Positions 50,033 through 63,907 of a stretch of 64,000 bases of DNA are shown here, one piece after another. Source of the stretch: Candidatus Eiseniibacteriota bacterium (GTDB lineage Bacteria; Eisenbacteria; RBG-16-71-46; SZUA-252). Numbering within the stretch: the first letter of the stretch is position 1; each line of letters begins with the position of its first letter. The translations under genes and the position numbers were made by a program. The DNA lies in NCBI GenBank assembly GCA_035716005.1, contig DASTKG010000052.1, forward strand, positions 6,360 to 70,359, written 5' to 3'. Under the pieces are notes generated by a model, which was not told the DNA's origin, ran no database searches, and saw only the letters and a program-made list of their open reading frames with translations.

Positions 50033-50040
<8 letters not shown>

Positions 50041-52156
50041 GCGCCTCCTGCTCGAGATCGGCTGCGAGGAGCTGCCGGCGTCGTTCGTCGGGCCGGCCCT
50101 CGAGGAGCTGGAAGCGCTGGCGCGGGCGGGGCTCGCGGAAGCCCGTCTCTCGTTCGGAGCCGTTCGCGTCCTCGGCACGCCGCGCCGTCTGGCGCTTCTC
50201 GTCGAGGGGCTCGCCGAGCGCCAGGAGGACCGGACGCGGGAAGTGCTCGGCCCGGCCGTCCGCGTGGCCTACGACGCGAAGGGCGCTCCCACGAACGCCG
50301 CGGCGGGCTTCGCGAAGGGGGCCGGGGTTCCGGTGGAGTCGCTCGAGCGGGCCACGACGCCGAAGGGGGAGTACCTCATGGCGCGCGTGCACGACGTGGG
50401 GGAACCGTCGGCCAAGGTCCTGCCCGCGCTCCTCGTCTCCTGGATCACGGGAATTCACTTTCCGAAGACGATGCACTGGAACGCCACCGGGCGCTTCGCG
50501 CGTCCTGTCCGCTGGCTCGTCTCGCTCCTCGACGGGGATCTCCTCCCGCTGGAGTGTTTCGGAGTCGCCGCCGGCACCCGGTCGAGAGGGCACCGGACGC
50601 TCGCCCCGGGATGGGTCGAGATCGGGCGCCCCGAGCGCTACGTCGACGCTCTCCGCGACGCGGGGGTCGTCGTCGATCCCGCCGAGCGGCGACGCCGGAT
50701 CGAGGAGGAGCTGGCGAGCGCCGTGGTGCCGATCGGCGGGCGCGCGGTGGAGGACGCCGAGCTCCTCGACGAGGTGACGCAGCTCGTCGAGTGGCCCGAA
50801 GCGGTGGTCGGCTCGTTCGACTCGAAATACCTCCAGCTCCCGCGGCCGGTCGTCGTGACCGCCATGCGCGCCCATCAGCGCTACTTCGCCGTGGAGCGCC
50901 CCGACGGCTCGCTCCTCGGGAATTTCGTCATGATCCGGAGCGGCCGCGGCGACGGGGCCGACCAGGTGCGCCGCGGAACGCAGGCCGTCCTTCGAGCGCG
51001 GCTCGAGGACGCCCGGTTCTACTGGGAGAACGATCTGAAGGGCGGGCTCGAATCGAAGCTGGAGACACTCAAGGGAATCGTCTGGCACGAGAAGCTCGGG
51101 TCGATCTACGACCGCACGCAGCGTCTCGGATTTCTCGTCGACGACCTGGCCCGATCGCTCGCGCCGAACGCCCGCGCCGCCGCCTCCCGCGCCGCGCGGC
51201 TCTGCAAGGCCGATCTCGCGACCGAGATGGTCCGCTCGGGCAAGGAGTTCGCCACGCTCCAGGGGATCGTGGGCGCCGAGTACGCGGCGGCGACCGGCGA
51301 GCCCGAGGGCGTGGTCCGGGCGATTCGCGAGCACTACCTCCCGCAGGGGCCTTCCGACCCGCTTCCCGCGACCGTGGAGGGGACGCTCCTGAGTCTGGCC
51401 GATCGGATCGAGGCGATCGTCGGCGGGCTCAGGGCCGGCCTCGAGGTGACGGGCTCGCAGGACCCGTACGGGCTTCGCCGCGCGGGGAACGGGGTCGTGC
51501 GGATTCTCCTCGAGAAGCAGCTCCGTCTCGACGTGCTGGAAGTCGCGTCCCGACTCTCGGCGTACTTTGAGAAGTCGGGCGTCCCGGTCGACCCCAAGGC
51601 GGGCGACCTGGTCGCCTTCTGGGCCCAGCGGCTCGAGAGCGCGCTGGAGGAGCAGGGGGTGACCCACGACACGGCGGCGGCGGTTCTGGCCGTCCGTCCC
51701 GGGGATCCGCTCGACGTCCTGGCGCGGGCCCGCGCGATCGACGAGATCCGCCGGAGCGAGGACTTCGAGGGCCTCATGGTCGGCTACCGGCGGGCCGCGA
51801 ATCTCCTCCGCACGGCCAAACCGGGCGACATTTCCGGCTCGGGGTCGCCGCTGGCCGAGCGCGCCGAGAATTTCGGGGAGAAAGTGGAGGCCGATCTCCA
51901 CCTCGAGACGAAGATGGCGAGGCAAGCGGTGGAGACGCTCCTCCAGGGCGACGCGCCCGATTATCCCAAGGCGCTTCGGATCCTCCTCGGCCTCCGACCG
52001 CCGATTGACGGATTCTTCGACGGGGTGATGGTTATGGTAGACGACACCGTCGCTCGTCGGCGTCGCCTCGGACTCCTCGAAGAGGTCCGGCAGACGTTTC
52101 TACGAATAGCGGACTTCTCCGCCCTCCCGGCGGGCGCAGGTCAAAAAGCTACTTGA
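50033..52156 (+). CDS. glyS: Glycine--tRNA ligase beta subunit
   Basis: GlyS N-terminus ([12 protein letters not shown]). 707 aa. GTG overlaps the glyQ stop. Confidence 0.93.
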
Positions 52157-52181
52157 CACTAGCCGGTTTCTGACCTATACT
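52153..52181 (+). promoter_or_regulatory. Perfect-consensus sigma70 promoter TTGACA-N17-TATACT with upstream A5 tract
   Basis: -35 is at 52153..52158 and overlaps the glyS stop codon. -10 is at 52176..52181. An AAAAA tract lies 5 nt upstream of the -35. GC content drops sharply downstream. Confidence 0.65.
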
Positions 52182-52187
52182 GGGCGG

Positions 52188-52627
52188 GTAAAGGAGATAG
52201 AATAATCTGTCTCCAGACAGCCGCAACCGCTAGAACCGATTGATATTACAGCGAATGCACGACACCCGATGGGCTGACGGTGCGGCTCGCTTTGTCTTTG
52301 GGGTTACTCGCGTTCGGCGCGTTTTCGCTTATTCGAGAGATTGATGGTAAGGGGGTGAGAGGACAGAGCGCTCTCTGGCTACCACTCGATTTTTGAAGAA
52401 GTTATGGAATGTGGATCGATTCGACGAAATTCAAAAGAGAGAAAGGAGGTCGGTAGGATTTCTCGTGAAGGGTAAGTCCATCAGCGCTCGAACTGTCCCG
52501 AACGAGCGGACGAACCCGACGCAGCACTCCAGACTCAACTAGAATTACCGAATCCCGTGTCGTGAAGTTCCAGTTAGTCCTCCCGATCTAGGGCTCCGAG
52601 TCAGGAAACACTAAGGAGGATGTGACA
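52188..52627 (+). other. Long (~440 nt) low-GC 5' leader / possible small RNA upstream of the 1248-aa gene
   Basis: Lies between the consensus promoter and the AAGGAGGA RBS. It begins with an 8-bp stem-loop at 52194..52215 (GGAGAUAG-aauaau-CUGUCUCC). A short CGCG-uucgg-CGCG hairpin followed by UUUU sits at 52311..52327. There is no convincing ORF. Confidence 0.4.
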
Positions 52628-55600
52628 ATGCGGAAAACCTTGTTCGCCTTGCTGGGTCTCGTGGCGATCGGATCGTGGGCCGTCCCGGCCCTCGCCGGTG
52701 TCGCTTTCAACGACCCGCCCAAGGCGTTCGCGCCGATTCCGCTCGAGAATCGTGCGGGCGCTATCGGAGCAATGGCAAAGAGCGGCACCAATTACCAGGC
52801 CACGCTGAGCGGCACGCTCATCAAGCAGGCGTCGGCCACCACCTCGTGGTTCCTCTATCCGGGCGCTTGCACCGACCGTGCGAACAACACGTGGGTGCCT
52901 CGTACCGCGGTCCAGGCCGACTCGCTCAACTCGTACCTCGTCGGTTCGCAGGGCGGATACGGGCGTGCGGATCAGTCGCTTTCCGAGAAGCTGTTCCATA
53001 TCGTTAGCTCGGGCCTGCCGGTCGGCCAGAAGCCGAACGGCATCAACGGCACGAACGCGATCTGGGCCGGAAAGTACGACGCGAACTGGGTGAACCCGGT
53101 CGGCTATCCGAACCTCACGAACCAGATCCTTTACATCGATCTCGAGTCGAACCGGGCGCCGATCGCGGCGAACACCGGTACGTACACGATCACGATGAAG
53201 CTGAACAGCTCCACCGAGCAGAATTACGACTTCCTGTACTTCATCGGTGGCGGCGATGCCGACGCGAACAACTTCGGCGACGAAGATCCGCTCGGCAACG
53301 ACCGCGGCGGCTTCGACCAGGTTCGCTCGACCGGATCGTTCGACGCTGCCACGCTTCAGGCCACGCTCACCGGCTCCATCATCGCCACGACCTCGGGTCT
53401 CCTGCCGTTCATCAATGGCTCGGCGGGTCCGACGATCGTGGGCGAGGGCGGTTCGCAGCCGGCGACGGTCAACCTGAACTTCCACATGACGACGGACAAC
53501 CGTGCGTTCTACATCCTCTTCACCGCCGACTGTCTCTTCTCGAGCGAAGACGGCCTCTGGCCCTTCGGCACGGGCGTGACGATCGACGACCTCACGGTGT
53601 TCGACGGCAGCGTGACCCGTAACCTCTACGTCGACCAGACGGCTGCCGGCGGCTCGGACACGGTGGGTGGCGACATCCTCGTGGCCGATCCGATCACGGC
53701 GACCGAGACGGACGGCGTGCGCATCTCGGCCCGCGTGTTCCCCGGCAAGGGCGAGCTCTGGGCCATCCAGCAGGGCAGCAGCTACACCACGTCCGACATC
53801 TGCCAGACGCAGAAGAACGCCACCACGGACCGCTTCTTCCTGGGCGTCGACCCCGTGACCAAGAACGCGCTTCCCGGCCAGTTCAACTCGGTCGTGACGT
53901 GCACGTTCGCGGTGCCGGCCGGCACGGCCGACATCACGGCGCTCTGGGGCGAGTACCTGAACCTGCCGCGTACCACGGGCTACGTTCAGTACTCGGAGTA
54001 CCGCTACTTCAAGGACGGCTCCTGGTCCAACTGGGAGAATACGGCTGCCGGCGGCGGTGTCCGCACGTCGGTGATCGACCAGTGGGTGGTTGACGGCGAT
54101 CCGCTCGCCTCGGCCGTCCAGGCCGATTCGTTCCAGGTCCGCTACAACATTCAGTGCATCACGGCGTTCGCCGCTGACCGCACGAATTGCGACAACAACA
54201 CGCAGTACGCCGTGCTCTACGACGACCTGTTCCTGCAGGTCACGACGGGCGTTCCGGCGCCGGTGTTCGGTATCTTCCCGGGTTCGGTGGCGCAGTCGAC
54301 CTTCGTCGACGGCAACATGACCGGCTTGAACTGCACCGTCACGCCGTGCTGGCCTGGCATCCGTGGTTCGGACCTCCAGACCAACCCGAACGTCGACATC
54401 GCTCGTAGCGCGGTGAAGGACAATCTCAACTCGCCGCTCGGCGACTCGCTCACGATGTCCTTCGTGACCGGTCTCCGCAAGAACGGCATGGGCATCAACT
54501 GGCACTACGGTTACGACAAGTCTGTGAACGGCGGTCTCACCGTCGCGATCACGAACGGCGCGTACAACCCGGCGTTCGATACGCCTCGGGTGATCTACCG
54601 CCTGTTCGACCCGGCCTCGAAGACCTGGAGCCCGTGGGACTCGACGTCCCTCAACGGCAACAACGTCTCCGTCGCGGGCGACACGGTCGTCATCGACTCC
54701 GAGTACCGCTTGAACTGGCCGCCGGCCGACAAGGTTGGTCTCAACCTGCCGGGCGGATTCACGATCAACGGTCAGGGCGCCTACAACAACCTGGCGTTCC
54801 TCCCGCGCGGTACGCGGATGCAGTACTACTTCAAGGCGGTCGACATCAACGGCGGCGTCAGCTACCAGTTCACGACCGATGCGCTCTCGCGCGAGGTCGA
54901 GGACCTGCCGACGCTTCCGGGCAGCGCGAACATCGCTGCTGACATCGTCGAGTTCGACGTTCTCCCGCGCGTTTATCCGGCGGGCACGGCGGGGACGCTT
55001 GCGGCGGGTCGCACCGACACGCCGGTCCTGAATCTCGACGGCGCCTACTGTGGTTGGGGCTTCGGCCAGGATCCCGTCACCGCGGCTCTCCGCGGCATGG
55101 GCGTCCGCGCCGACCGGTACCGTCCTCTCGCGGCGATCGACGAGGGTCATCTCCTCGGCGGGCACGAACTCGCCCCCGATCGTCCGTCGCGTCAGAGCAA
55201 TTACTTCCCGAATAAGGATGAGTACGGGATCAAGGATTCGCTCGCGACGTGGTACCGCATCATGATCCAGAATTCGCACACCAGCACGGTCCCGTCGATC
55301 GACGAGTCCGCGGCTCAGCTCGTTTCCGACTGGGCGGCCACGGATACCGGCGCTAACGGCGGCGATCGCTGCATCTTCTTCTCGGGCGATGACGCCTTCA
55401 ACTCGCTGACCAACTCTCCGGTCGGCGTCCCCGGCGCCCGCAAGCTCGCGCTCTCGACGGCCGTCTTCGGCGTCGCGAACGTGGTGACGCTGGCTCCGAG
55501 CGCGGCGAAGGGCTCCTGGGCGGGTACGACCGGCAATGCGTATCCGACCATCGATGACCGCTTCGCGGCTCAGGCTTCCGGTCCTGGTCTCGCGGCCCCC

Positions 55601-56374
55601 GGTTCGTTCACCTACGAAGTCGACGGTGGATGCCCCGGTCCGAACCGCTTCGATCCTCTCACCCCGACGGGCGGTGCGGTTGCTGCGGCGACCTTCCCGG
55701 TCGCGGCGGGCGTGACGGACGTCGCGGGTGTGGCCAAGGCGAGCGAGCTCGACAACACGCCCGACCTCGACCAGACCAAGGCCCTCAGCTACGGTTACTC
55801 GATCCAGTTCGTGCGTGGCACCGCGGGCGTGATTCCGCGCAACGCGGCCAACTACGTGCGTTCGGGCGTCCAGAACCGCATGCAGATTCTCTACAAGTTC
55901 CTGACGGGTTGCCGCGGCGCTCGTGGTGCTGGCTCGCTCTGCTGGCCGTGCCCGACGGATGCCAACCTGATCAGCAACTGGCTCACGGCGCCGGGCTTCA
56001 ACACGGCGACCTACGGCCCGCTCTATCCGATTCAGGACTTCACGAAGGCGACGGGTGTCGAGGTCGAGGAAGCGTCCGCGGCTCCGCGGGTCAACCGCAT
56101 CTTCGGCAACAGCCCGAACCCCTTCAACCCGATGACCAAGATCTCGTTCAGTGCCGCGCAGGCGGGCAAGGTCACGATCCGTATCTTCAACGTGGCCGGC
56201 CAGCTCGTTCGCACCCTCGAGACCAAGGTTGAGACGCCCGGAACCGCGAGCGTCTACTGGGATGGCATGTCGGATCGCAACGTCAAGTCGGGCAGCGGCG
56301 TGTACTTCTACAAGGCCACGTTCGCCAACGGCACCACGTTGACGGCCGATCGCAGCATGGTGCTCGTGAAGTAA
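52628..56374 (+). CDS. Large secreted protein of unknown function with a T9SS-type (Por_Secre_tail-like) C-terminal sorting domain
   Basis: Signal peptide (LFALLGLVAIGSWAVPALAG). About 1150 aa with no recognised catalytic motif. The final ~85 aa match the T9SS C-terminal-domain pattern (NSPNPFNPMTKISFS..GKVTIRIFNVAGQLVRTL.....SGVYFYKA....MVLVK). The strong RBS AAGGAGGA lies 7 nt before the ATG. Confidence 0.8.
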   Translation: MRKTLFALLGLVAIGSWAVPALAGVAFNDPPKAFAPIPLENRAGAIGAMAKSGTNYQATLSGTLIKQASATTSWFLYPGACTDRANNTWVPRTAVQADSLNSYLVGSQGGYGRADQSLSEKLFHIVSSGLPVGQKPNGINGTNAIWAGKYDANWVNPVGYPNLTNQILYIDLESNRAPIAANTGTYTITMKLNSSTEQNYDFLYFIGGGDADANNFGDEDPLGNDRGGFDQVRSTGSFDAATLQATLTGSIIATTSGLLPFINGSAGPTIVGEGGSQPATVNLNFHMTTDNRAFYILFTADCLFSSEDGLWPFGTGVTIDDLTVFDGSVTRNLYVDQTAAGGSDTVGGDILVADPITATETDGVRISARVFPGKGELWAIQQGSSYTTSDICQTQKNATTDRFFLGVDPVTKNALPGQFNSVVTCTFAVPAGTADITALWGEYLNLPRTTGYVQYSEYRYFKDGSWSNWENTAAGGGVRTSVIDQWVVDGDPLASAVQADSFQVRYNIQCITAFAADRTNCDNNTQYAVLYDDLFLQVTTGVPAPVFGIFPGSVAQSTFVDGNMTGLNCTVTPCWPGIRGSDLQTNPNVDIARSAVKDNLNSPLGDSLTMSFVTGLRKNGMGINWHYGYDKSVNGGLTVAITNGAYNPAFDTPRVIYRLFDPASKTWSPWDSTSLNGNNVSVAGDTVVIDSEYRLNWPPADKVGLNLPGGFTINGQGAYNNLAFLPRGTRMQYYFKAVDINGGVSYQFTTDALSREVEDLPTLPGSANIAADIVEFDVLPRVYPAGTAGTLAAGRTDTPVLNLDGAYCGWGFGQDPVTAALRGMGVRADRYRPLAAIDEGHLLGGHELAPDRPSRQSNYFPNKDEYGIKDSLATWYRIMIQNSHTSTVPSIDESAAQLVSDWAATDTGANGGDRCIFFSGDDAFNSLTNSPVGVPGARKLALSTAVFGVANVVTLAPSAAKGSWAGTTGNAYPTIDDRFAAQASGPGLAAPGSFTYEVDGGCPGPNRFDPLTPTGGAVAAATFPVAAGVTDVAGVAKASELDNTPDLDQTKALSYGYSIQFVRGTAGVIPRNAANYVRSGVQNRMQILYKFLTGCRGARGAGSLCWPCPTDANLISNWLTAPGFNTATYGPLYPIQDFTKATGVEVEEASAAPRVNRIFGNSPNPFNPMTKISFSAAQAGKVTIRIFNVAGQLVRTLETKVETPGTASVYWDGMSDRNVKSGSGVYFYKATFANGTTLTADRSMVLVK

Positions 56375-56396
56375 GCGAGTTCCAGCAGCAGCGGAA

Positions 56397-56431
56397 GGGC
56401 CGCCAGGTTCGCCTGGCGGCCCTTTTCGTTT
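56397..56431 (+). terminator. Rho-independent terminator
   Basis: GGGCCGCCAGG-uucg-CCUGGCGGCCC followed by UUUUCGUUU, 23 nt after the stop codon. Confidence 0.8.
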
Positions 56432-56557
56432 GCCCCCGGTGGGCCTGAATGGCACACTTGGCGGCGCCGGGGCCGCGCCGCCTGGATCGCCCCATGCCCC
56501 GCCCCTCGAACCGGCCCGATCGGCTGAACTGGGCCTTCCGGACCAGGTAAAATCGGT

Positions 56558-56655: not shown

Positions 56656-58212
56656 ATGCCCCAGCGCGTTGCGTGGCGCACCGCCGCCCGTCCCGTTGTG
56701 ATCCTTGTCGGGCTCGCCGCATTGCTGGCGGCCTGCGCCAAAGAACCAGTCGCCGTCGATCGGAATCGCCCTCCGCGCACCTATCTCGTGTCGGCGCCGC
56801 CGGAGAGCGGTTCGTTCTCCTATCGCATTCATCTCTACTGGCGCGGCGAGGATCCGGACGGCTACGTGGTCGGATACCAGTGGGCGTGGGACGATTCGAG
56901 CATCAACGCGTTCCACTTCACCACGAAGACGGACACGATCTTCGAGCTCGCCGTGAACGACTCGGCCACCATCACCGGCGGCAACACCAACCAGCCGCCA
57001 GGGACGTCGAAGGGCCATACGTTCTTCATCCGCGCGGTGGACAATCTCGGCAAGCCCGATCCGAACCTGGCCGTATTCAACAGGCGCATCATCATCTCCA
57101 CGACGGTGAAGCCCACGGTGGCGTTCAAGCCCCCGCTCCCGGGCCCGGGGCCCGGCGTCGACTCGCTCTGCGACGGGCAGCCCTTCGAAGTATGCTGGGG
57201 CGGTAGCGATCCGGACGGGAGCATTCTCGGATACAAGTTCGACGTCGGCTCCTACAGCAGCCCGATCGTCCGGGATTCCTGCGTCAGCTTCAACGACGCG
57301 AACAATCCGAACTCCATCGCGCTGGCGAGCGGCCTCTACACGCTGACGGTCCAGTCGGTCGACAACGCCTACGCGCTGAGCGATCCCGGCGCGAGCAAGT
57401 TCCTCTTCGTCGTCAACCGCGATCCCGTCACCTGGTTCAAGGACGCGTCGGGCGGACGGGGCATCCCGGTCGGCTACTACATCGCGCCGTATCTCCGCGG
57501 GCAGCTCGTGCCGCCGACGATCAGGCAGTTCGCCCCCGGCGACACGGTTCCGTATCGGTCCACCGTCTGGTGGCAGTGGGACGGGGAGGACAATGCGTGC
57601 GACAGCCCGAGCGGCATCAACGCGTTTTCGCTCTCCGGGCAGGTCTATCACAACGGCAACGTGCCCTACATCATCGGCTTCCTGCCCGAAATCGCGCCCG
57701 GGATTCCGTTCAAGACGAACGATCCGGTCGTGCTGGGGCAGAACAATTTCTCCAACCTGATCCTCGACTCCCTCGACGCGGGGAACGGCATTCTCATGCG
57801 AGTCCGCGCGCGGGACCTCTCGAACCGCATCTCGGGGCTCCAGTACTCCGGGGAGTTCACGTTCAACTGCAACTTCCCGCCCAAGCTGAAGAACTTCCGA
57901 GTCTGCGACGCCTGCTCGCTCGGACAGAAGTGGAAGCGCTTCGAGTGGGACGCCGAGGATGAGGAGGACGGATTCCCGGCCGAGGCCACGCTCTACCTGG
58001 AGAACGGCCTCGACACGAGGACGGTTCTCGGCCCGAATTTCTTCTACATCCCCGAACGAGTGTTCCGGGACTTCTCCCCGACGAATCCGCACGTCGCCGA
58101 GGTGCGGGTCAAGGATCGCGCCGGCTATGCGTCCGCGGAACGCCTGAAAGTGACGTTCAACGTCGATTACGTAGACACATTGTGCAATTTCCCCAACGCA
58201 CCTTGTCCCTAG
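56656..58212 (+). CDS. Lipoprotein with repeated W-x-G-x-D-P-D-G Ig-like modules (paralog A)
   Basis: Lipobox LLAACA. At least four repeats are present (HLYWRGEDPDGYVVGYQW; EVCWGGSDPDGSILGYKF; VWWQWDGEDNACDSPSG; FEWDAEDEEDGF). Y_Y_Y-like motifs appear as well (LYTLTVQSVDN, LFVVNRDPVTWF). Confidence 0.75.
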   Translation: MPQRVAWRTAARPVVILVGLAALLAACAKEPVAVDRNRPPRTYLVSAPPESGSFSYRIHLYWRGEDPDGYVVGYQWAWDDSSINAFHFTTKTDTIFELAVNDSATITGGNTNQPPGTSKGHTFFIRAVDNLGKPDPNLAVFNRRIIISTTVKPTVAFKPPLPGPGPGVDSLCDGQPFEVCWGGSDPDGSILGYKFDVGSYSSPIVRDSCVSFNDANNPNSIALASGLYTLTVQSVDNAYALSDPGASKFLFVVNRDPVTWFKDASGGRGIPVGYYIAPYLRGQLVPPTIRQFAPGDTVPYRSTVWWQWDGEDNACDSPSGINAFSLSGQVYHNGNVPYIIGFLPEIAPGIPFKTNDPVVLGQNNFSNLILDSLDAGNGILMRVRARDLSNRISGLQYSGEFTFNCNFPPKLKNFRVCDACSLGQKWKRFEWDAEDEEDGFPAEATLYLENGLDTRTVLGPNFFYIPERVFRDFSPTNPHVAEVRVKDRAGYASAERLKVTFNVDYVDTLCNFPNAPCP

Positions 58213-58248
58213 TGCGACCACGCCGAGGATAGAGGAGTAAACGATTCG

Positions 58249-60528
58249 ATGATCCGGAACATCCTGAAGCTGGTCCCAGTCCTGCTCTTCGCGGCCGTCG
58301 CGGCTCTCTTCGCGGGTTGCTCGAAGGACAATACCGCGGGCCCGACTCCGGTGAAGCAGAACCCGGAGACCGAGCTGACGTACGCGCCGCTGCAGGGAGA
58401 CACCGCGGGGTATCGCGTCCGCCTCTATTGGAACGGCTACGATCGCGACGGAGAGGTGGTTCGGTTCCGCTACGCGATCGACTCCGACACGCTGGAGCCC
58501 GATCCCACGAAGTGGAAATCGACCACCGCCAAGGACACGACGCTGCTCCTTCTCGTCGACCCGGTGAAGGAGATCCGTGGGCACGTCTTCTGGGTCTCCG
58601 CGGAGGACAACGAGGGCCGGATCGATCCGACGCCCGCGAAGCGGTTCTTCTCCACGAAGACGATTCCGCCGACCTCGGAGATCCTCCGGGGACCGTCGGC
58701 GTTCAACGCGATCATCGGCCCGAACTTCACGTATGAATGGGAGGGGATCGATCCCGACGGCGGCGAGACGGGCGGCCGCGCTCCCTGCGATTCGTTCGAA
58801 TACCTGTTGCTTCTGATCGGGGCCGTGAACGATCCGAACACGCCGCCGACGCATCCGCCTCTCCCCCAGTTCAATCAGACGTTCTACGTCAATCTGATCA
58901 ACGCGAGCGTGAACGACACGCTCGTGGCGCCTCACGGAGACTGGCGCTGGACCGGAATCCGGGGAACCCGCCTGCGGGTCCGGAACGCGAGCCCCGGCGA
59001 GTACGTCTTCGCCCTGCGCGCGGTCGACCTGGCCGGCGCGCGTGAGAAGAACATCGCCTTCGTGCGGAACATCCGGCACTTCACGGTCACGAACCGGAAC
59101 CCCGGGCCGACGCTGACCATCGAGGCAAGCGTGCTGACGACGCCTCTGCCGACGGCGACGGGACCGGAGGATTTCCCGCGGCGCGAGATCCAGATCTTCG
59201 AAGGCGAGATCATCTCCTTCTCCTGGTCGGCGTCGGCCGACGCCTATGGCGGCAGCATCGTCGGGTTCACGTACGCTCTCGACGACACGGCGTCGTTCCC
59301 CGGCCTCGACGTCAGGAATATCGGCGTGACCTACCGGCCCCAGGATCTGGGCGTGGGCCTCCACTACCTTTTCGTGCGGGTCTTCGACGACGGCGGTCTG
59401 AGAACGAACGCCATCATCCCGTTCCGGATCGTTCATCCCACGTTCAAGGACCCGCCGGGTCCGTTGAACCCGCCGTCGTACCTCTACGTGGATGACGCCC
59501 TTTCTCCGGGCGTGAACAACAGGAATCGCTTCTTCAACTACCCGTCCGACGCCGAAGAGGACGAGTGGATGCGGATCAACGTCCTGACACCCATTTCTCT
59601 GGCCACCGGCGTCGGCAAGTCCGACTGGGACACGTTCGGCAAAGGCGACGAGGGCGGGGGAGGATCCCGAATTCAGCCCCTCCCGGCCGATCTGGCGCCC
59701 TACCGCGTCGTGATCTGGAGCGTCGACCACAACAACCAGGTCGGGAATCCGACGGCGCTCTGGCTGACCCTGGTCGGCGGGGCCTACAGCGATCTGGGCG
59801 GATACCTGCGCGCGGGCGGAACCCTGGTTCTCTACGGCTTCTCGGTCGCCAGCAGCATCGTACAGCCGACCACGGCTCTGACGGCGAACTTCTCACGAGG
59901 AATCTGCTTCGCGTTCCCGGCGAACACCCTCGGCTACAACCAGACGTTCTTCCCCCGGTCGATGATGGGGATCGACGGCGCCAGAGCCGCCGACGAAGGG
60001 TTGCGGAGGCAGGGCGCGAAGGACTTCCTGGAGGCGCGGGTGACCCCGCAGGGCGCCGCCCTCGGATATCAGACGGCGGTCGTCGACACGGGCGCGGGCA
60101 ACAAGTGGGACGGCAAGCTCGTGGCCGGAGATCCCGAGTCGTCCTGGGCTCCGGGCCTCCCGCGTATCGAAGGCTGGAAGATGGCCTCGCTCTTCAACTG
60201 CGAGCCGAGCCAAGGGCTCCTTCGCAAGGAGGACGCGAGCAGGCCGATCTCGACGCCTCTCTACACGTACCACGGGGCCCCGATCGGGATCTACATGACG
60301 GGGGCTCAGTCGCCGCGCGAGAACCTGATCGTCGGCGTCCAGGTGCAGGCGCACGACGTCGGCGGCTTCGGTGGCGGGACGGTCACACAGGGTTCCCTGG
60401 GCGTCATCGGACGCGTCGTGGTGCTCGGGTTCCCGATGTACTTCCTGAAGGATGCCCAGGCGACGTCGATCATGCTGACCGCCTTCAACTACGTGAACGG
60501 GTCGCCGACGCTGCCCCTGATGCCATAG
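58249..60528 (+). CDS. Lipoprotein with W-x-G-x-D-x-D-G modules (paralog B, 759 aa)
   Basis: Lipobox LFAGCS. The N-terminal repeats are homologous to the upstream gene (YRVRLYWNGYDRDGEVVRFRY; FTYEWEGIDPDGG). The C-terminal half is unique. The RBS GAGGAG 36 bp after the upstream stop suggests co-transcription. Confidence 0.75.
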   Translation: MIRNILKLVPVLLFAAVAALFAGCSKDNTAGPTPVKQNPETELTYAPLQGDTAGYRVRLYWNGYDRDGEVVRFRYAIDSDTLEPDPTKWKSTTAKDTTLLLLVDPVKEIRGHVFWVSAEDNEGRIDPTPAKRFFSTKTIPPTSEILRGPSAFNAIIGPNFTYEWEGIDPDGGETGGRAPCDSFEYLLLLIGAVNDPNTPPTHPPLPQFNQTFYVNLINASVNDTLVAPHGDWRWTGIRGTRLRVRNASPGEYVFALRAVDLAGAREKNIAFVRNIRHFTVTNRNPGPTLTIEASVLTTPLPTATGPEDFPRREIQIFEGEIISFSWSASADAYGGSIVGFTYALDDTASFPGLDVRNIGVTYRPQDLGVGLHYLFVRVFDDGGLRTNAIIPFRIVHPTFKDPPGPLNPPSYLYVDDALSPGVNNRNRFFNYPSDAEEDEWMRINVLTPISLATGVGKSDWDTFGKGDEGGGGSRIQPLPADLAPYRVVIWSVDHNNQVGNPTALWLTLVGGAYSDLGGYLRAGGTLVLYGFSVASSIVQPTTALTANFSRGICFAFPANTLGYNQTFFPRSMMGIDGARAADEGLRRQGAKDFLEARVTPQGAALGYQTAVVDTGAGNKWDGKLVAGDPESSWAPGLPRIEGWKMASLFNCEPSQGLLRKEDASRPISTPLYTYHGAPIGIYMTGAQSPRENLIVGVQVQAHDVGGFGGGTVTQGSLGVIGRVVVLGFPMYFLKDAQATSIMLTAFNYVNGSPTLPLMP

Positions 60529-60739: not shown

Positions 60740-61115
60740 ATGCACGTCTGGGCGACGGACTCTCAGGACGCGAAGCGGACGCACGAGGGCGTGGTCCGGG
60801 CGTTCGAGCACTTCGGCGGCGTGGTGCGCGAAGTGCCGGTGGACAACCAGAAGTGCGCGCCGCTCGATGATCGTCCCGGGAACGGCCGCGGTTCAACGAG
60901 CGGTTCCTCGACCTCGGCCACCACTACGCTACGTGATGCGGAACTTCTTCGTTCGCTACCGCGAGTTCGAGAGCTACGCCCACCTGAATCAGCTCCTCGA
61001 GCGGTGGTTGAGAGAGGAGGCCGATCCCCGGATCCACGGCACCGTGCGGGAAGTGGTGGCGGCGCGGTTTCTCCGGGAGGCGCCGACGCTCACGCCGCCC
61101 CCTGGAGACCTATGA
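60740..61115 (+). pseudogene. istA: istA (IS21 transposase) C-terminal fragment, multiple frameshifts and internal deletion
   Basis: See the mobile-element entry. The segments are in frames 1, 0 and 2 in turn, with an in-frame stop after HHYAT. Confidence 0.7.
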
Positions 61116-61127
61116 GGAGGTGGCGAC

Positions 61128-61632
61128 GTGGAATTGACCACCTTCCTCGAACGGATGAAGCGGGAGCATCCGGCCGCGCGGATCGACAGCGTCTGCGAGC
61201 AGGCCGCGGGACAGGACCTCGACTACAAGAGGTTCCTCGCCCAGGCCCTGGTGACGGAATGCCAGGGCCGATTCCGTCGGGGGATCGAGGCCCGCGGGAA
61301 GCTGGCGCGGTTCCCCTGGATCAAGGCCCCTCGACCAGTTCGACTTCGACTTCCAGCCGAGCCTCGATCGGAAGATCGTGCGCGAGCTCGCCTGGCTCTC
61401 CGTCGTCGAGCGGGCGCACAACGTGGTGCTCCTCGGCCCGCCGGGCGTCGGCAAGACGGACCTGGCCATCTCGCTGGGGATGAACGCGGTCGAGGCAGGC
61501 TACTCTGTCCTGTTCCTCACCCTGGAGCAATTGATGACCCGGCTCACGCGGGCTCGGCAGGAGAACCGGCTCGAGCGCGCGCTTCAGCAGCATGTGTATC
61601 CCAGAGTGCCGATCCTCGACGAGCTCGGCTAG
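61128..61632 (+). pseudogene. istB: istB (IS21 helper ATPase) fragment, frameshift near 61325 and truncation after ILDELG
   Basis: Walker A GPPGVGKT is in a different frame from the N-terminal MELTTFLERMK segment. The C-terminal ~80 aa are missing. Confidence 0.7.
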
Positions 61633-61849: not shown

Positions 61850-63706
61850 TTACTTCGCCATCACCATCTTGACGACGTCGGACGTGATCTCGCTGCCCTT
61901 GCCGTCGCCGACCGAAGCCTTCGCGAAGTAGATACCCGAAGCAGCCTTCGCGCCGGTGCTGGTCGAACCATCCCACGCAGCCTCGTGCGAACCGGTCCCG
62001 TAGTTGCCGCTGGCGACGGTCTTCACGAGCTCGCCGCGCACGTTGTAGACGCGGACGTTCACGAAGCCGGGCTTGGCGACCGAGAAGCGGATCTTGGTCA
62101 CGGGGTTGAAGGGATTCGGCGAGTTCTGCTCGAGACGAACCACCTGGCCGGCCGCGTTGTTGGACGAGAGCTTGAGGTAGCCGTAGCCCTGGAACTGGCG
62201 GCCGCGGGTGCTCGAGTAAGCGGTAACCGGGCAGATGACGGTCTGATTGACGAGACCGAGAGCGACAAGGCGAGCCTCGACCGTCTTACGGTTGAGCTGC
62301 ATGATCGTCTCGTATTCCCCGCCGTTGACCTGGTTCGTCATCGCGGCGAACGGCGCACCGTTCACGGCCGAGGTCGGTCCAGGCTGGCCGAGGAAGGTCG
62401 GGCTGATGATGATCGAGTTGCGGTTCTTGATGCCCTCGTGTCCGGCCGGAATGCCGATGAAGCCCTTGTCGTCGACGTCGGCGACGGCCACGAATCCGGC
62501 GGCCTGCGTCTCGGCGGGCATGCTGATCGTCACGTTGAGATTCCCGCCATTGCTGCCCAAGTTGAGGGTCGTCGGGCTGATCGCGACGCCGAGCGGGAGA
62601 GCCGGGAAGCAGTTGTTCGCGCTGGCACGCCAGATGCCGAGACCGAAGTTGGCGCCCTGGCTGGAGCAGAGGAACAGGTTGTACGGGTTGCCGTCGAGGT
62701 TGAAGTTCGTCAGGGACGAGACATCCGGATCGGCGTCGCCGCGATTGTCGAAGAAGATGTCGCACTTCGACTGCGTCGCGAGGTCGAGCTTGAAGATGTC
62801 GGTGTTGTTGTTGATGTCCTCGCCCTGCGGAGCGTCATAGAAGATCGACGCGCCGTCGGACGACCACGACGGGTTGTTGTGCGAAATCGAGGCGAAATTC
62901 GTCTCGGCGAGGTAGAACGTGCCCGGAGCGTTGAGGTCGGCGATCTCGATCACGTTGCGGCCGAACTTGTTGGTCGCGTACGCGATCAGATTGTTGGGAC
63001 CCCACGTCGGGTTGATTTCCGACCGGGCGTCGTTCGTGGTGGCGCGCGCCGGGACGCCGACCGTGGCGGTCGGAACGTCGACCGAGACGTACCAGATGTC
63101 GGTCGAAGGACCCGCCGCGTTCGACGCGTAGCAGAGCGCCGTGCCGTCCGGCTTCCAATCGGGGGTGCGATTGATGACGCCGGGGGCGGCCGGGACGACG
63201 AGCAGGGGCGAACCGACCGGGGTCGTCGCGGCGAGCGTGGTCGTTCCGGTCATGTACTCCTGGACGTAGATCGCCGACTGCGTGATCTGGCCGTCCGTCT
63301 GCACGTACGCGAGGTACTTGCCGTTCGGGCTCCACGCCGGATCCGTGTAGGAGACCATGGCGGCGGGATCAAGGAGCATCGGACGACGAGCGTCCATAAT
63401 GTCGGCCACCGAGAAGCCGATCTGAGCGGCATTCTGGCCGAGCCAGATCGAACGAACGGTTTCGCTGCCGACCACGGTGCTGCGGGTGGAGAACGAGTAC
63501 CAGCGCTCGGTCTGCGCATGGCCGCCGTTCGCCCGGATATTGGCGTTGCGGAGCGACGGCTGCTCGCAGCCGTTCGCGAGGCCTGTGTTGAACGGTGCAC
63601 CATTCGTGAGGGGATCCCAGACCCCACGAAGGGCCGCACTCGCATGTACCGGCACGAGCGCGAAGAAGAGCGCCAGCAGCACGGTCACACCTAGCAGTTT
63701 CTTCAT
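61850..63706 (-). CDS. Secreted PD40/TolB-like beta-propeller protein with T9SS-type C-terminal sorting domain
   Basis: Signal peptide (MKKLLGVTVLLALFFALVPVHASA). PD40-like repeats (YTDPAWSPNGKYLAYV; NRTPDWKPDGTALCYASN; EINPTWGPNNLIAYATN; HNNPSWSSDGASIFYDA). The C-terminal ~90 aa match the T9SS C-terminal-domain pattern (NSPNPFNPVTKIRFSV..PGFVNVRVYNVRGELVKTV....SGIYFAKA....MVMAK). Confidence 0.85.
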   Translation of the reverse strand: MKKLLGVTVLLALFFALVPVHASAALRGVWDPLTNGAPFNTGLANGCEQPSLRNANIRANGGHAQTERWYSFSTRSTVVGSETVRSIWLGQNAAQIGFSVADIMDARRPMLLDPAAMVSYTDPAWSPNGKYLAYVQTDGQITQSAIYVQEYMTGTTTLAATTPVGSPLLVVPAAPGVINRTPDWKPDGTALCYASNAAGPSTDIWYVSVDVPTATVGVPARATTNDARSEINPTWGPNNLIAYATNKFGRNVIEIADLNAPGTFYLAETNFASISHNNPSWSSDGASIFYDAPQGEDINNNTDIFKLDLATQSKCDIFFDNRGDADPDVSSLTNFNLDGNPYNLFLCSSQGANFGLGIWRASANNCFPALPLGVAISPTTLNLGSNGGNLNVTISMPAETQAAGFVAVADVDDKGFIGIPAGHEGIKNRNSIIISPTFLGQPGPTSAVNGAPFAAMTNQVNGGEYETIMQLNRKTVEARLVALGLVNQTVICPVTAYSSTRGRQFQGYGYLKLSSNNAAGQVVRLEQNSPNPFNPVTKIRFSVAKPGFVNVRVYNVRGELVKTVASGNYGTGSHEAAWDGSTSTGAKAASGIYFAKASVGDGKGSEITSDVVKMVMAK

Positions 63707-63844
63707 TCCTTCATCTCCTCTCTAACGCGGGTAAAATCGAGAAGACACCTCAAGAGGATAAGGTAGACGACAGTCTGAGCCCGATCACCTCCTTATTAAC
63801 TCAGCTTTCAGAGTGACTCTAAAGTGATGTAATTACAAGCAATC

Positions 63845-63860
63845 GGGAACACGTGTTCCC
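63845..63860. promoter_or_regulatory. Perfect 16-bp palindrome GGGAACACGTGTTCCC (candidate operator)
   Basis: Positioned at about +11..+26 relative to the predicted minus-strand transcription start, inside the 5' leader of the 61850..63706 gene. Confidence 0.5.
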
Positions 63861-63877
63861 GCTTTCACACTCCAAGT

Positions 63878-63907
63878 AGTATACGCGTCCGATCGATGAA
63901 GTGTCAA
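63878..63907 (-). promoter_or_regulatory. Consensus sigma70 promoter (minus strand) TTGACA-N18-TATACT with upstream A5 tract
   Basis: Reverse complement of 63902..63907 is TTGACA. Reverse complement of 63878..63883 is TATACT. TTTTT at 63912..63916 supplies the A-tract. The promoter sits ~170 nt upstream of the CDS start. Confidence 0.6.

Follow-up and report, generated by a model that had tools for sequence, protein, structure and literature searches.

Elements in 5′ untranslated regions (UTRs) that stabilise a message, such as those of the ompA type, and ribosome standby sites such as that of tisB are short (~100–130 nt) and lack repeated extended Shine–Dalgarno (SD) motifs. In the very highly expressed cry3A gene of Bacillus thuringiensis, an SD-like sequence deep in a long 5′ UTR serves not for initiation but as a stabilising SD, or STAB-SD (Agaisse & Lereclus 1996, reviewed in PMC4113751). 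Among envelope-protein genes, the slpA leader of Lactobacillus acidophilus contains a stem-loop (PMC6482533) and the S-layer genes of Methanosarcina (slmA1) carry a conserved UTR of 154 nt (PMC3361143). Here we describe a much longer leader, of ~440 nt, which lies between glyS and a gene for a 1248-amino-acid (aa) cargo protein of the type IX secretion system (T9SS) in Candidatus Eisenbacteria. It was found in a stretch of 64,000 nt (contig DASTKG010000052.1 of assembly GCA_035716005.1, positions 6,360 to 70,359), hereafter the window. Eisenbacteria are common in soils and sediments; to our knowledge, they have never been cultured and nothing is known of the control of their gene expression.

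The leader shares with the cry3A STAB-SD a motif that is complementary to the 16S rRNA tail and stands far from the start codon, with no conserved start or open reading frame (ORF) behind it. The cry3A motif, which we take to be GAAAGGAGG, is identical to positions 52441-52449 of the window. Unlike cry3A, the present leader has two internal motifs rather than one, set within ~440 nt of conserved folded RNA and predicted to be largely paired. The host is not a Firmicute, there is no sequence homology past the SD core, and stabilisation is here proposed by analogy. As in slpA and slmA1, a strong promoter precedes a monocistronic envelope-protein gene with a long conserved leader that is predicted to fold, and the first hairpin of our leader (P1, below) is comparable to the 5′ stem-loop that is thought to protect mRNAs of this type. 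The Eisenbacteria leader differs from these two in being 3–4 times longer, in being conserved across a phylum rather than one genus, and in having helices backed by covariation and a helix predicted to sequester the SD; its protein is a T9SS cargo, for which a role in an S-layer would be a guess.

With the ompA-type and tisB elements the leader has in common a hairpin very near the 5′ end, together with a structured ribosome-binding site (RBS) of the kind understood to need ribosome loading upstream. It also recalls riboswitch and T-box leaders, being conserved and folded, having a long-range helix in competition with a U-tailed hairpin, and carrying an SD open to sequestration. Unlike those, it matches no Rfam family, its gene is neither metabolic nor one for an aminoacyl-tRNA synthetase, its 440 nt are far above the usual size, and no covariation is seen in the terminator-like hairpin. 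As a functional category, structured 5′ leaders of highly expressed envelope-protein genes are known; the RNA family is new, and so are the size of the leader, the repetition of SD and anti-SD motifs within it, the modular character of its 5′ domain and its spread at the level of a phylum.

The locus and its promoter

The original prediction singled out a low-GC stretch at 52182-52627, starting at a TTGACA-17-TATACT promoter whose −35 hexamer overlaps the glyS stop, and read it either as a ~140-nt small RNA (sRNA) or as a structured leader of the 1248-aa gene. The composition is indeed distinctive: GC content is 0.520 compared with 0.687 for the whole window, in which the lowest-GC stretch of 446 nt begins at 52141. 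The upstream ORF (50033-52156) is glyS, itself preceded by glyQ, and its closest relatives (68–85% amino-acid identity) all belong to metagenome-assembled genomes (MAGs) of Candidatus Eisenbacteria. The locus is organized as follows.

52143-52181, + strand: promoter, with an A-tract (52143-52147), −35 TTGACA (52153-52158), a 17-nt spacer and −10 TATACT (52176-52181)
52188-52627, + strand: whole leader (5′ UTR), ~440 nt, starting at the predicted +1, G52188, and ending just before the ATG
52628-56374, + strand: gene served by the leader, 1248 aa; signal peptide at the N-terminus, T9SS type A sorting domain at the C-terminus

The promoter is of the sigma70 type and its hexamers match the consensus at 11 of 12 positions; no other promoter-like site is found in 51500-53200. 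The glyS stop codon TGA (52154-52156) does sit within the −35 hexamer. Both hexamers are kept in 40 distinct orthologous sequences, the −35 as TTGACA in 34 and TTGACT in six, the −10 as TATACT in 39 and TAGACT in one, with spacers of 16–17 nt. The final glyS codons (..GGTCAAAAAGCTACTTGA, 52140-52156) also serve as the A-tract and −35 of the promoter. As this segment is conserved at the nucleotide level in all orthologs, the C-terminus of GlyS appears to be constrained by the promoter.

Other elements noticed at the outset are likewise present. The 8-bp stem-loop near the predicted start lies at 52193-52214, which is +6 if transcription starts at G52188, and appears in the minimum free energy (MFE) fold. 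The small GC hairpin (CGCGTTCGGCGCG, 52309-52321) is followed by TTTT, and the true start codon, ATG 52628, is ~440 nt away. Nor does the leader hold a credible ORF: no conserved one was found among the orthologous leaders.

Conservation and distribution of the leader

Loci for comparison were gathered by scanning metagenome contigs with the N-terminus of the protein and then searching with a profile of the leader. This nucleotide profile (nhmmer) detected the leader in more than 70 Eisenbacteria loci, every time on the + strand and directly 5′ of the orthologous gene. In seven of the seven Eisenbacteria genome loci that reach beyond glyS, the same intergenic element is followed by the same downstream gene, and wherever full-length leaders come with upstream DNA, glyS ends at the promoter. 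The 46 distinct full-length leaders measure 422–447 nt and share 56–100% pairwise identity. Relatives are 71–91% identical to the window over the leader, a value equal to or above that for the 450-nt segments at the end of glyS and at the beginning of the coding sequence (CDS). Conservation extends without a gap as far as the ATG and peaks in the 3′ half.

Neither the 18 paralog loci nor the glyS loci outside Eisenbacteria contain the leader. A distant Eisenbacteria genome (L012) gave no match to the leader profile and only a chance-level match (E 0.37) to the covariance model R1 described below. A homolog that is 66% identical and has a different signal peptide (L163) is preceded by a perfect TTGACA-17-TATAAT promoter and a ~80-nt unrelated leader (L163:200-316); members of the gene family thus share a strong promoter but not the leader. 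Another homolog, P0087, on an 818-kb contig, has ~1.1 kb of upstream DNA (L168:412-1500) with neither a called gene nor the leader; either its gene start is miscalled or it has some other long upstream region.

In seven loci of another lineage, a gene for a LytTR-type regulator replaces glyS and only the 3′ ~190–230 nt of the leader are kept, from GAAAGGGGGU to the AUG. The persistence of the 3′ domain alone in this LytTR-linked lineage identifies it as the core, to which the 5′ ~250 nt are an added module. Within ~100–250 nt upstream of the 3′ domain in this lineage, a conserved motif, (GA)TTTGCAATCAT(T/G)TG, was located 30–150 nt before the domain (L123, L134, L136, L137, L141, L143 and L154), often followed by a C-rich run. 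It could be a different promoter or the binding site of a regulator.

Covarying helices

Three structural elements are supported by compensatory changes among the orthologous leaders.

52193-52214, + strand: P1, 5′-proximal hairpin, GGAGAUAG-AAUAAU-CUGUCUCC, 8 bp in the window
52219-52287, + strand: P2, long-range helix, AGCCGCA-A-CCGCU (52219-52231) with GACGG-UGCGGCU (52276-52287)
52470-52517, + strand: P5-P6, long hairpin, supported by covariance model R1 and covariation

Across the family, the consensus stem of P1 has 6 bp, and its loop, AAAAUAACUU, is conserved. In an alignment of 36 sequences of the 5′ domain, 99.5% of its cells are paired and both sides change in three of the six pairs. 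P2 continues in inner pairs (52236-52237 with 52272-52273) and encloses ~40 nt that include conserved bases; its both-side changes run from A-U to U-G or C-G and from C-G to G-C. Taken together, P1 and P2 have a covariation score of 0.303, compared with 0.166 for shuffled alignments, none of 500 of which reaches it, and 0.05–0.15 for slid controls.

In the 3′ domain, P5 is formed by GGGU..GUCC (52470-52479) with GGAC..ACCC (52508-52517), and P6 by GCUCG (52486-52490) with CGAGC (52503-52507), the apical loop holding the conserved CUGUCCC. Folding of the duplex sequence by sequence indicated that P5, of ~10 bp, is widely divergent yet complementary, as in GAGGUUGCCC/GGGCGAUCUC, GAGAUCGCUC/GAGCGAUCUC and GAGGACACCC/GGGUGUCCUC. 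When RNAalifold was run on unedited MAFFT alignments, of the entire leader or of the 3′ domain, the structures obtained were poor or partial. Because MAFFT shifts the 5′ strand of P5 by 1–2 columns, a covariance model (R1) was built from one clade. It matched 64 loci at the first search and four more later; every match is on the + strand, and the 18 paralog loci gave none. Both sides change in 10 of the 11 P5 pairs of the model-based alignment, and the covariation score of P5-P6 is 0.284 compared with 0.162 for shuffles (none of 500 reaching it) and 0.03–0.06 for slid controls, values to be read with the bias of a structure-fitted alignment towards that structure in mind. Frequent G-U pairs are consistent with the + strand only. 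Comparative alignment thus finds compensatory changes above controls in P1, P2 and P5-P6 and, on this comparative evidence, the leader is a folded RNA conserved across Eisenbacteria and not a spacer.

Other pairings were considered in the 3′ domain, around a further conserved segment.

52525-52569, + strand: pyrimidine-rich block, with conserved CACUCCAGACUCAAC ... GUACCGAAUCCCGUG ... GUUCC

A candidate helix of GACU (52532-52535) with AGUU (52566-52569) is 99% paired (pair types UA 29, UG 27, CG 4). In the 52536-52612 region, GACU/AGUU and AGUUC/GGACU are equally compatible and mutually exclusive helices of 4–5 bp. Three other helices tried there, UCGGU/ACCGA, CGA(A)/U(U)CG and UUCC/GGAA, keep no single register across clades and were rejected, as was a small GUCG/CGAC hairpin after GGAGGU, the register of which varies by clade. 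Three CUCC-type pyrimidine motifs are invariant: CACUCC, GUCCUCC and GG(A/G)CUCC.

Shine–Dalgarno-like motifs and the ribosome-binding site

Besides the RBS of the gene, the leader contains two extended SD-like motifs and a segment complementary to the SD.

52349-52360, + strand: internal extended SD-like motif 1, AAGGGGGUGAGA, family form AAGG(G/A)GGUGAG
52441-52450, + strand: internal extended SD-like motif 2, GAAAGGAGGU, at the 5′ edge of the core 3′ domain
52577-52583, + strand: anti-SD GUCCUCC, invariant in 61 sequences and complementary to GGAGGAU (52615-52621)
52613-52630, + strand: true RBS and start, AAGGAGGAU, with the SD core at 52615-52621 and ATG at 52628-52630

Such motifs are concentrated here: three of the 19 matches to AAGGRGG in 128 kb (both strands) fall within the 440-nt leader. 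Motif 1, at −279 to −268 relative to the ATG, is invariant or nearly so in the 46 leaders, and in one clade is predicted to pair with UCACCC ~65 nt downstream. Motif 2 (−187 to −178) keeps its GG[A/G]GG core in 61 of 61 distinct 3′ domains and is retained where a lineage has lost or never had the 5′ half; an AUG stands 7 nt past it in one clade only, with no coding signature behind. At the true RBS, AAGGAGG (52613-52619) precedes ATG 52628, within an extended RBS, UAAGGAGGAU, at 52612-52621, which is likewise invariant.

The anti-SD:SD helix comprises 7 bp that are paired in 100% of the 61 sequences, and its median predicted probability in 45 leaders is 0.76. In the same 45 leaders the median probability that the SD core is unpaired is 0.05, compared with 0.41 for all positions. 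The SD is therefore predicted, by folding, to be sequestered by the anti-SD of the leader.

Transcript-like contigs

The gene ends at a strong terminator.

56395-56432, + strand: strong intrinsic terminator, 20 nt past the stop codon, AAGGGCCGCCAGG-UUCG-CCUGGCGGCCCUU then UUCGUUUG

Seven contigs of ~4.1–4.4 kb (Ga0180111_1238166, Ga0184645, Ga0308197, Ga0180119, Ga0180114, Ga0184648 and Ga0535707_000100) start at profile positions 57–78, that is, 10–30 nt past the predicted +1. Their 3′ ends were read for two of the seven and lie 27 nt (L161) and 23 nt (L165) past the stop codon, the former within the 5′ arm of the terminator. Two contigs that start deeper in the leader, L162 and L166, end 21 and 26 nt past the stop codon. 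Among the first 15 short contigs, six have the start codon 402–433 nt from the contig end, within one 32-nt window (post-hoc binomial P ~2e-4); L165, with 417 nt, was found after these. Many homologs lie on contigs barely longer than the gene, and length alone could reflect short assemblies. By the positions of their ends, the ~4.2-kb contigs look like assembled full-length mRNAs of leader plus gene. These ends fit a monocistronic mRNA of ~4.25 kb, from 52188 to ~56430, and argue against a separate promoter near the CDS.

Some short contigs start inside the leader, at profile positions ~205–211 (L089, L095), ~278 (L104) and ~395–409 (L116, L108, L160). Their starts lie just 5′ of an SD-like motif or in the GUACCGAAUCCCGUG block. 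They could be assembly truncations or, by analogy with the −129 end of cry3A next to its STAB-SD, processed 5′ ends.

Terminator-like hairpins, known RNA families and coding potential

Two hairpins in the 5′ part of the leader raise the question of transcription termination.

52270-52299, + strand: weak terminator-like hairpin, UGGGCUG-ACGGUG-CGGCUCG with U-rich tail CUUUGUCUUU, overlapping the 3′ strand of P2
52309-52325, + strand: small GC hairpin and UUUU, CGCGUUCGGCGCG, specific to the window

The second is the one at which the original prediction placed the end of a ~140-nt sRNA (52327). Among the 46 leaders, the hairpin with its U run occurs in one, that of the window, in an alignment block that is variable. 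Since it is unique to the window, the sRNA reading finds no comparative support. A hairpin with a U-rich tail near 52270-52299 (~+83 to +112) is more widespread, being present in 34 of the 46 leaders in registers that differ by clade; the tail is absent in the other 12. Treated as fixed columns, it is 72% paired and its covariation does not exceed that of shuffles. As it uses the 3′ strand of P2, the hairpin and P2 are mutually exclusive, and an attenuator with P2 as antiterminator is a possible but weak reading. For an independent sRNA gene, the leader offers a promoter but no conserved terminator, and it never occurs apart from the downstream gene.

None of the covariance models of Rfam 15, which cover riboswitches, T-box, ribosomal-protein leaders, 6S, tmRNA, RNase P, SRP, OLE/GOLLD/ROOL and others, reached its gathering score anywhere in the window. 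Nothing was found at E <= 10 within 52182-52627 or at E <= 5 in six orthologous loci. ARAGORN found no tRNA or tmRNA. A T-box leader was considered and rejected: the element lies 3′ of glyS and 5′ of a secreted T9SS cargo gene, and RF00230 does not match. The proposal of a structured leader for the 1248-aa gene, by comparison, has held up, as the leader is conserved to the ATG, linked to the gene, built on covarying helices and spanned by contigs; its assignment to a riboswitch class found no counterpart in Rfam.

ORFs in the leader vary in place, frame and strand among orthologs, and none is conserved in frame. The sole recurrent ORF, in one clade, has 47 codons behind GGAGG-N7-AUG and is frameshifted or lost in six of 15 members. 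Substitutions fall on its codon positions in numbers of 356/286/284, and synonymous and non-synonymous codon differences stand at 92:480. A leader peptide or small ORF was thus rejected, the recurrent ORF failing the tests of codon position and synonymous change. In clade 2 (e.g. L006:8382-8540, corresponding to window 52440-52600), the 47-codon ORF might be translated as an upstream ORF.

Discussion

We cautiously favour the view that these sequences form a family of cis-acting structured 5′ leaders which stabilises the mRNA and gates its translation; the stabilising effect, the binding of 30S subunits to the internal motifs and the gating of the SD are inferred from the features described above. 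The consensus promoter on the glyS stop would transcribe leader and gene into one monocistronic mRNA of ~4.25 kb that ends at 56395-56432, and expression of the T9SS-cargo gene appears to be heavy. Lying close to the 5′ end, P1 would, together with the compact P2 and P5-P6 domains, protect this mRNA from decay that depends on that end. The internal motifs AAGGGGGUGAGA and GAAAGGAGGU, being complementary to the 16S rRNA tail, may bind 30S subunits without initiation, in the manner of a STAB-SD or a standby site. The true SD would be held in the 7-bp GUCCUCC:GGAGGAU helix, and we propose that ribosome entry is consequently gated, by the upstream loading sites or by another factor. Support for such a function comes from a second T9SS-cargo gene of the window, which has a leader of like design (see below), and from the long structured leaders known for abundant envelope-protein genes (PMC6482533, PMC3361143).

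Several points weigh against this scheme. STAB-SD action is established only where RNase J1 acts. The internal SD-like motifs are mostly paired by prediction (mean unpaired probability 0.26 and 0.32, compared with 0.41 overall), a poor fit with free 30S binding, and a sequestered SD is surprising for a highly expressed gene and leaves room for an activating signal or factor. The anti-SD:SD helix, GGAG:CUCC and the SD-like motifs never vary, so that covariation can neither confirm nor refute them. The GGAG:CUCC pairing, tried as the closing helix of a P4-P6 domain, is always compatible but invariant, has a probability of 0.04 in full-length folds and was set aside. Folded singly, the leader of the window shows no unusual stability in its MFE (z = −0.74 on the + strand and −0.63 on the − strand), which makes the structural evidence comparative, not thermodynamic. 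The mRNA origin of the ~4.2-kb contigs is judged from their end positions, a literature search on the JGI sample number having returned nothing, and two similar contigs (L091, L092) include the promoter. Finally, the short unrelated leader of L163 indicates that the leader is not required for the gene family.

Among the alternatives, a signal-responsive regulator, riboswitch-like or bound by a protein, is the most substantial, and we regard it as rather unlikely. Here the 5′ domain (P1, P2 and the conserved bases within P2, ~105 nt) would sense a ligand or factor and choose between P2 and the 52270-52299 hairpin, and the 3′ domain would toggle the SD between sequestered and free. In size and layout the 5′ domain does resemble an aptamer with its expression platform, many loop bases are invariant (the P1 loop AAAAUAACUU, the P6 loop CUGUCCC), the SD is predicted to be sequestered and AGUUC has alternative partners. 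The mutual exclusion of P2 and a hairpin that occurs with its U-rich tail in 34 of 46 leaders also suits a switch, but that hairpin is far weaker than the gene's own terminator, its register depends on the clade, its tail is missing from 12 leaders, and its 72% pairing covaries no better than shuffles. The transcript-like contigs read through it. No Rfam model matches in the window or in the six relatives, even at E up to 5–10, the 5′ domain is absent from the LytTR-linked lineage that keeps the 3′ domain, and no ligand or factor can be named. The same contigs, running from ~+10 through the CDS, speak against an independent sRNA of ~100–140 nt ending at 52290-52299 or 52322-52325, with the remainder as the gene's own upstream region. 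A strong promoter followed by two hairpin-plus-U sites within 140 nt would suit such a gene, and P1 and P2 form a compact covarying unit that is evolutionarily separable, since the LytTR-linked lineage lacks it. However, the 52309-52325 hairpin is unique to the window, there is no second promoter between it and the CDS, conservation runs on to the ATG with its maximum in the 3′ half, and the 5′ unit is never found away from the gene in the loci examined; an sRNA is accordingly improbable.

Equally improbable is a protein operator, in which a CsrA-type protein at GGA motifs, or the unsecreted product by feedback, would bind the leader and repress or activate translation at the sequestered RBS. 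Several purine tracts containing GGA are invariant, as are hairpin loops, and autoregulation through the 5′ UTR is reportedly a property of the Thermus S-layer gene. The RBS GGAGGAUGU resembles the 3′ half of the CsrA consensus, but this resemblance is automatic for an SD beside an AUG, and a candidate protein was not identified in the window. That the region is a functionless AT-rich spacer or a missed small coding gene is scarcely credible. The MFE z-score is unremarkable and several ORFs of 40–100 codons can be drawn, but the sequence is conserved like the neighbouring coding DNA, three helices carry compensatory changes, the ORFs vary in place, frame and strand, and the best recurrent one fails the coding tests.

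Returning to the favoured structured leader, a broader formulation is conceivable, and we put it forward as tentative. The leader may be a large cis-regulatory RNA, a switchable ribosome-loading platform or a riboswitch, that sets the output of a dominant T9SS-secreted surface protein across Eisenbacteria; its three domains would each be closed by a purine–pyrimidine helix of SD/anti-SD type, and its 5′ domain would be gained or lost as a module.

The downstream gene and its neighbourhood

The protein encoded at 52628-56374 begins, after ATG 52628, with a signal peptide (MRKTLFALLG..., MRKTLFALLGLVAIGSWAVPALA). Its C-terminus matches TIGR04183 with 26.3 bits (cutoff 23) and FlgD_ig at E = 3.7e-9. 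Outside this C-terminal sorting domain, the protein matched neither a Pfam nor an NCBIfam family, and its sequence had no match in the PDB. At least 158 homologs were detected at E <= 0.001, and most of the 120 listed are full-length (~1200–1290 aa). Some 10 cysteines are invariant throughout the family, as are many W, D and G residues. AlphaFold gives a confident model of the mature part, predominantly beta and made up of several domains, with a predicted local distance difference test score (pLDDT) of 85 and a predicted template modelling score (pTM) of 0.84. Its structural matches are weak (TM ~0.1) and are to beta sandwiches of the CBM-like, MAM-like and reelin-repeat kinds. To judge from its signal peptide and sorting domain, the product is a large secreted or surface protein; the model suggests that it may represent a new surface-protein architecture, and the name 'S-layer protein' would be guesswork. 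A literature search found no paper linking Eisenbacteria with T9SS or S-layers.

The second leader of like design is at 63707-63907 on the − strand. An A-tract precedes its TTGACA-18-TATACT promoter (63907..63878), and its low-GC 5′ UTR of ~165 nt has a 7-bp hairpin (63861..63844) near the 5′ end and an internal extended SD-like motif, AAGGAGGTGA (63794..63785), which includes AAGGAGGUGA and stands ~80 nt before the real RBS. The gene behind it (61850-63706, − strand) encodes 618 aa with a PD40 repeat and a C-terminal tail of the FlgD_ig/T9SS type. A short ORF in 60740-61483 weakly matches a fragment of an IS21-family transposase (27 bits, cutoff 160). This fragment and the unannotated ORFs of 56656-60528 hint at a variable region downstream of the 1248-aa gene.

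Significance for Eisenbacteria

The leader is the first well-supported structured regulatory RNA for Eisenbacteria, with a defined promoter, predicted start and terminator. Together with the promoter it marks the true 5′ end of the gene, which helps the annotation of MAGs. The attached gene looks like one of the most strongly transcribed of these bacteria and would supply a 130-kDa surface protein sorted by the T9SS. If the internal SD copies do load or park ribosomes, the STAB-SD or standby principle would extend beyond Firmicutes and enterobacteria to a high-GC member of the Fibrobacteres–Chlorobi–Bacteroidetes (FCB) group, and the leader would amount to a natural high-expression cassette. 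If instead it senses a signal, it would represent a new and unusually large riboswitch-like class.

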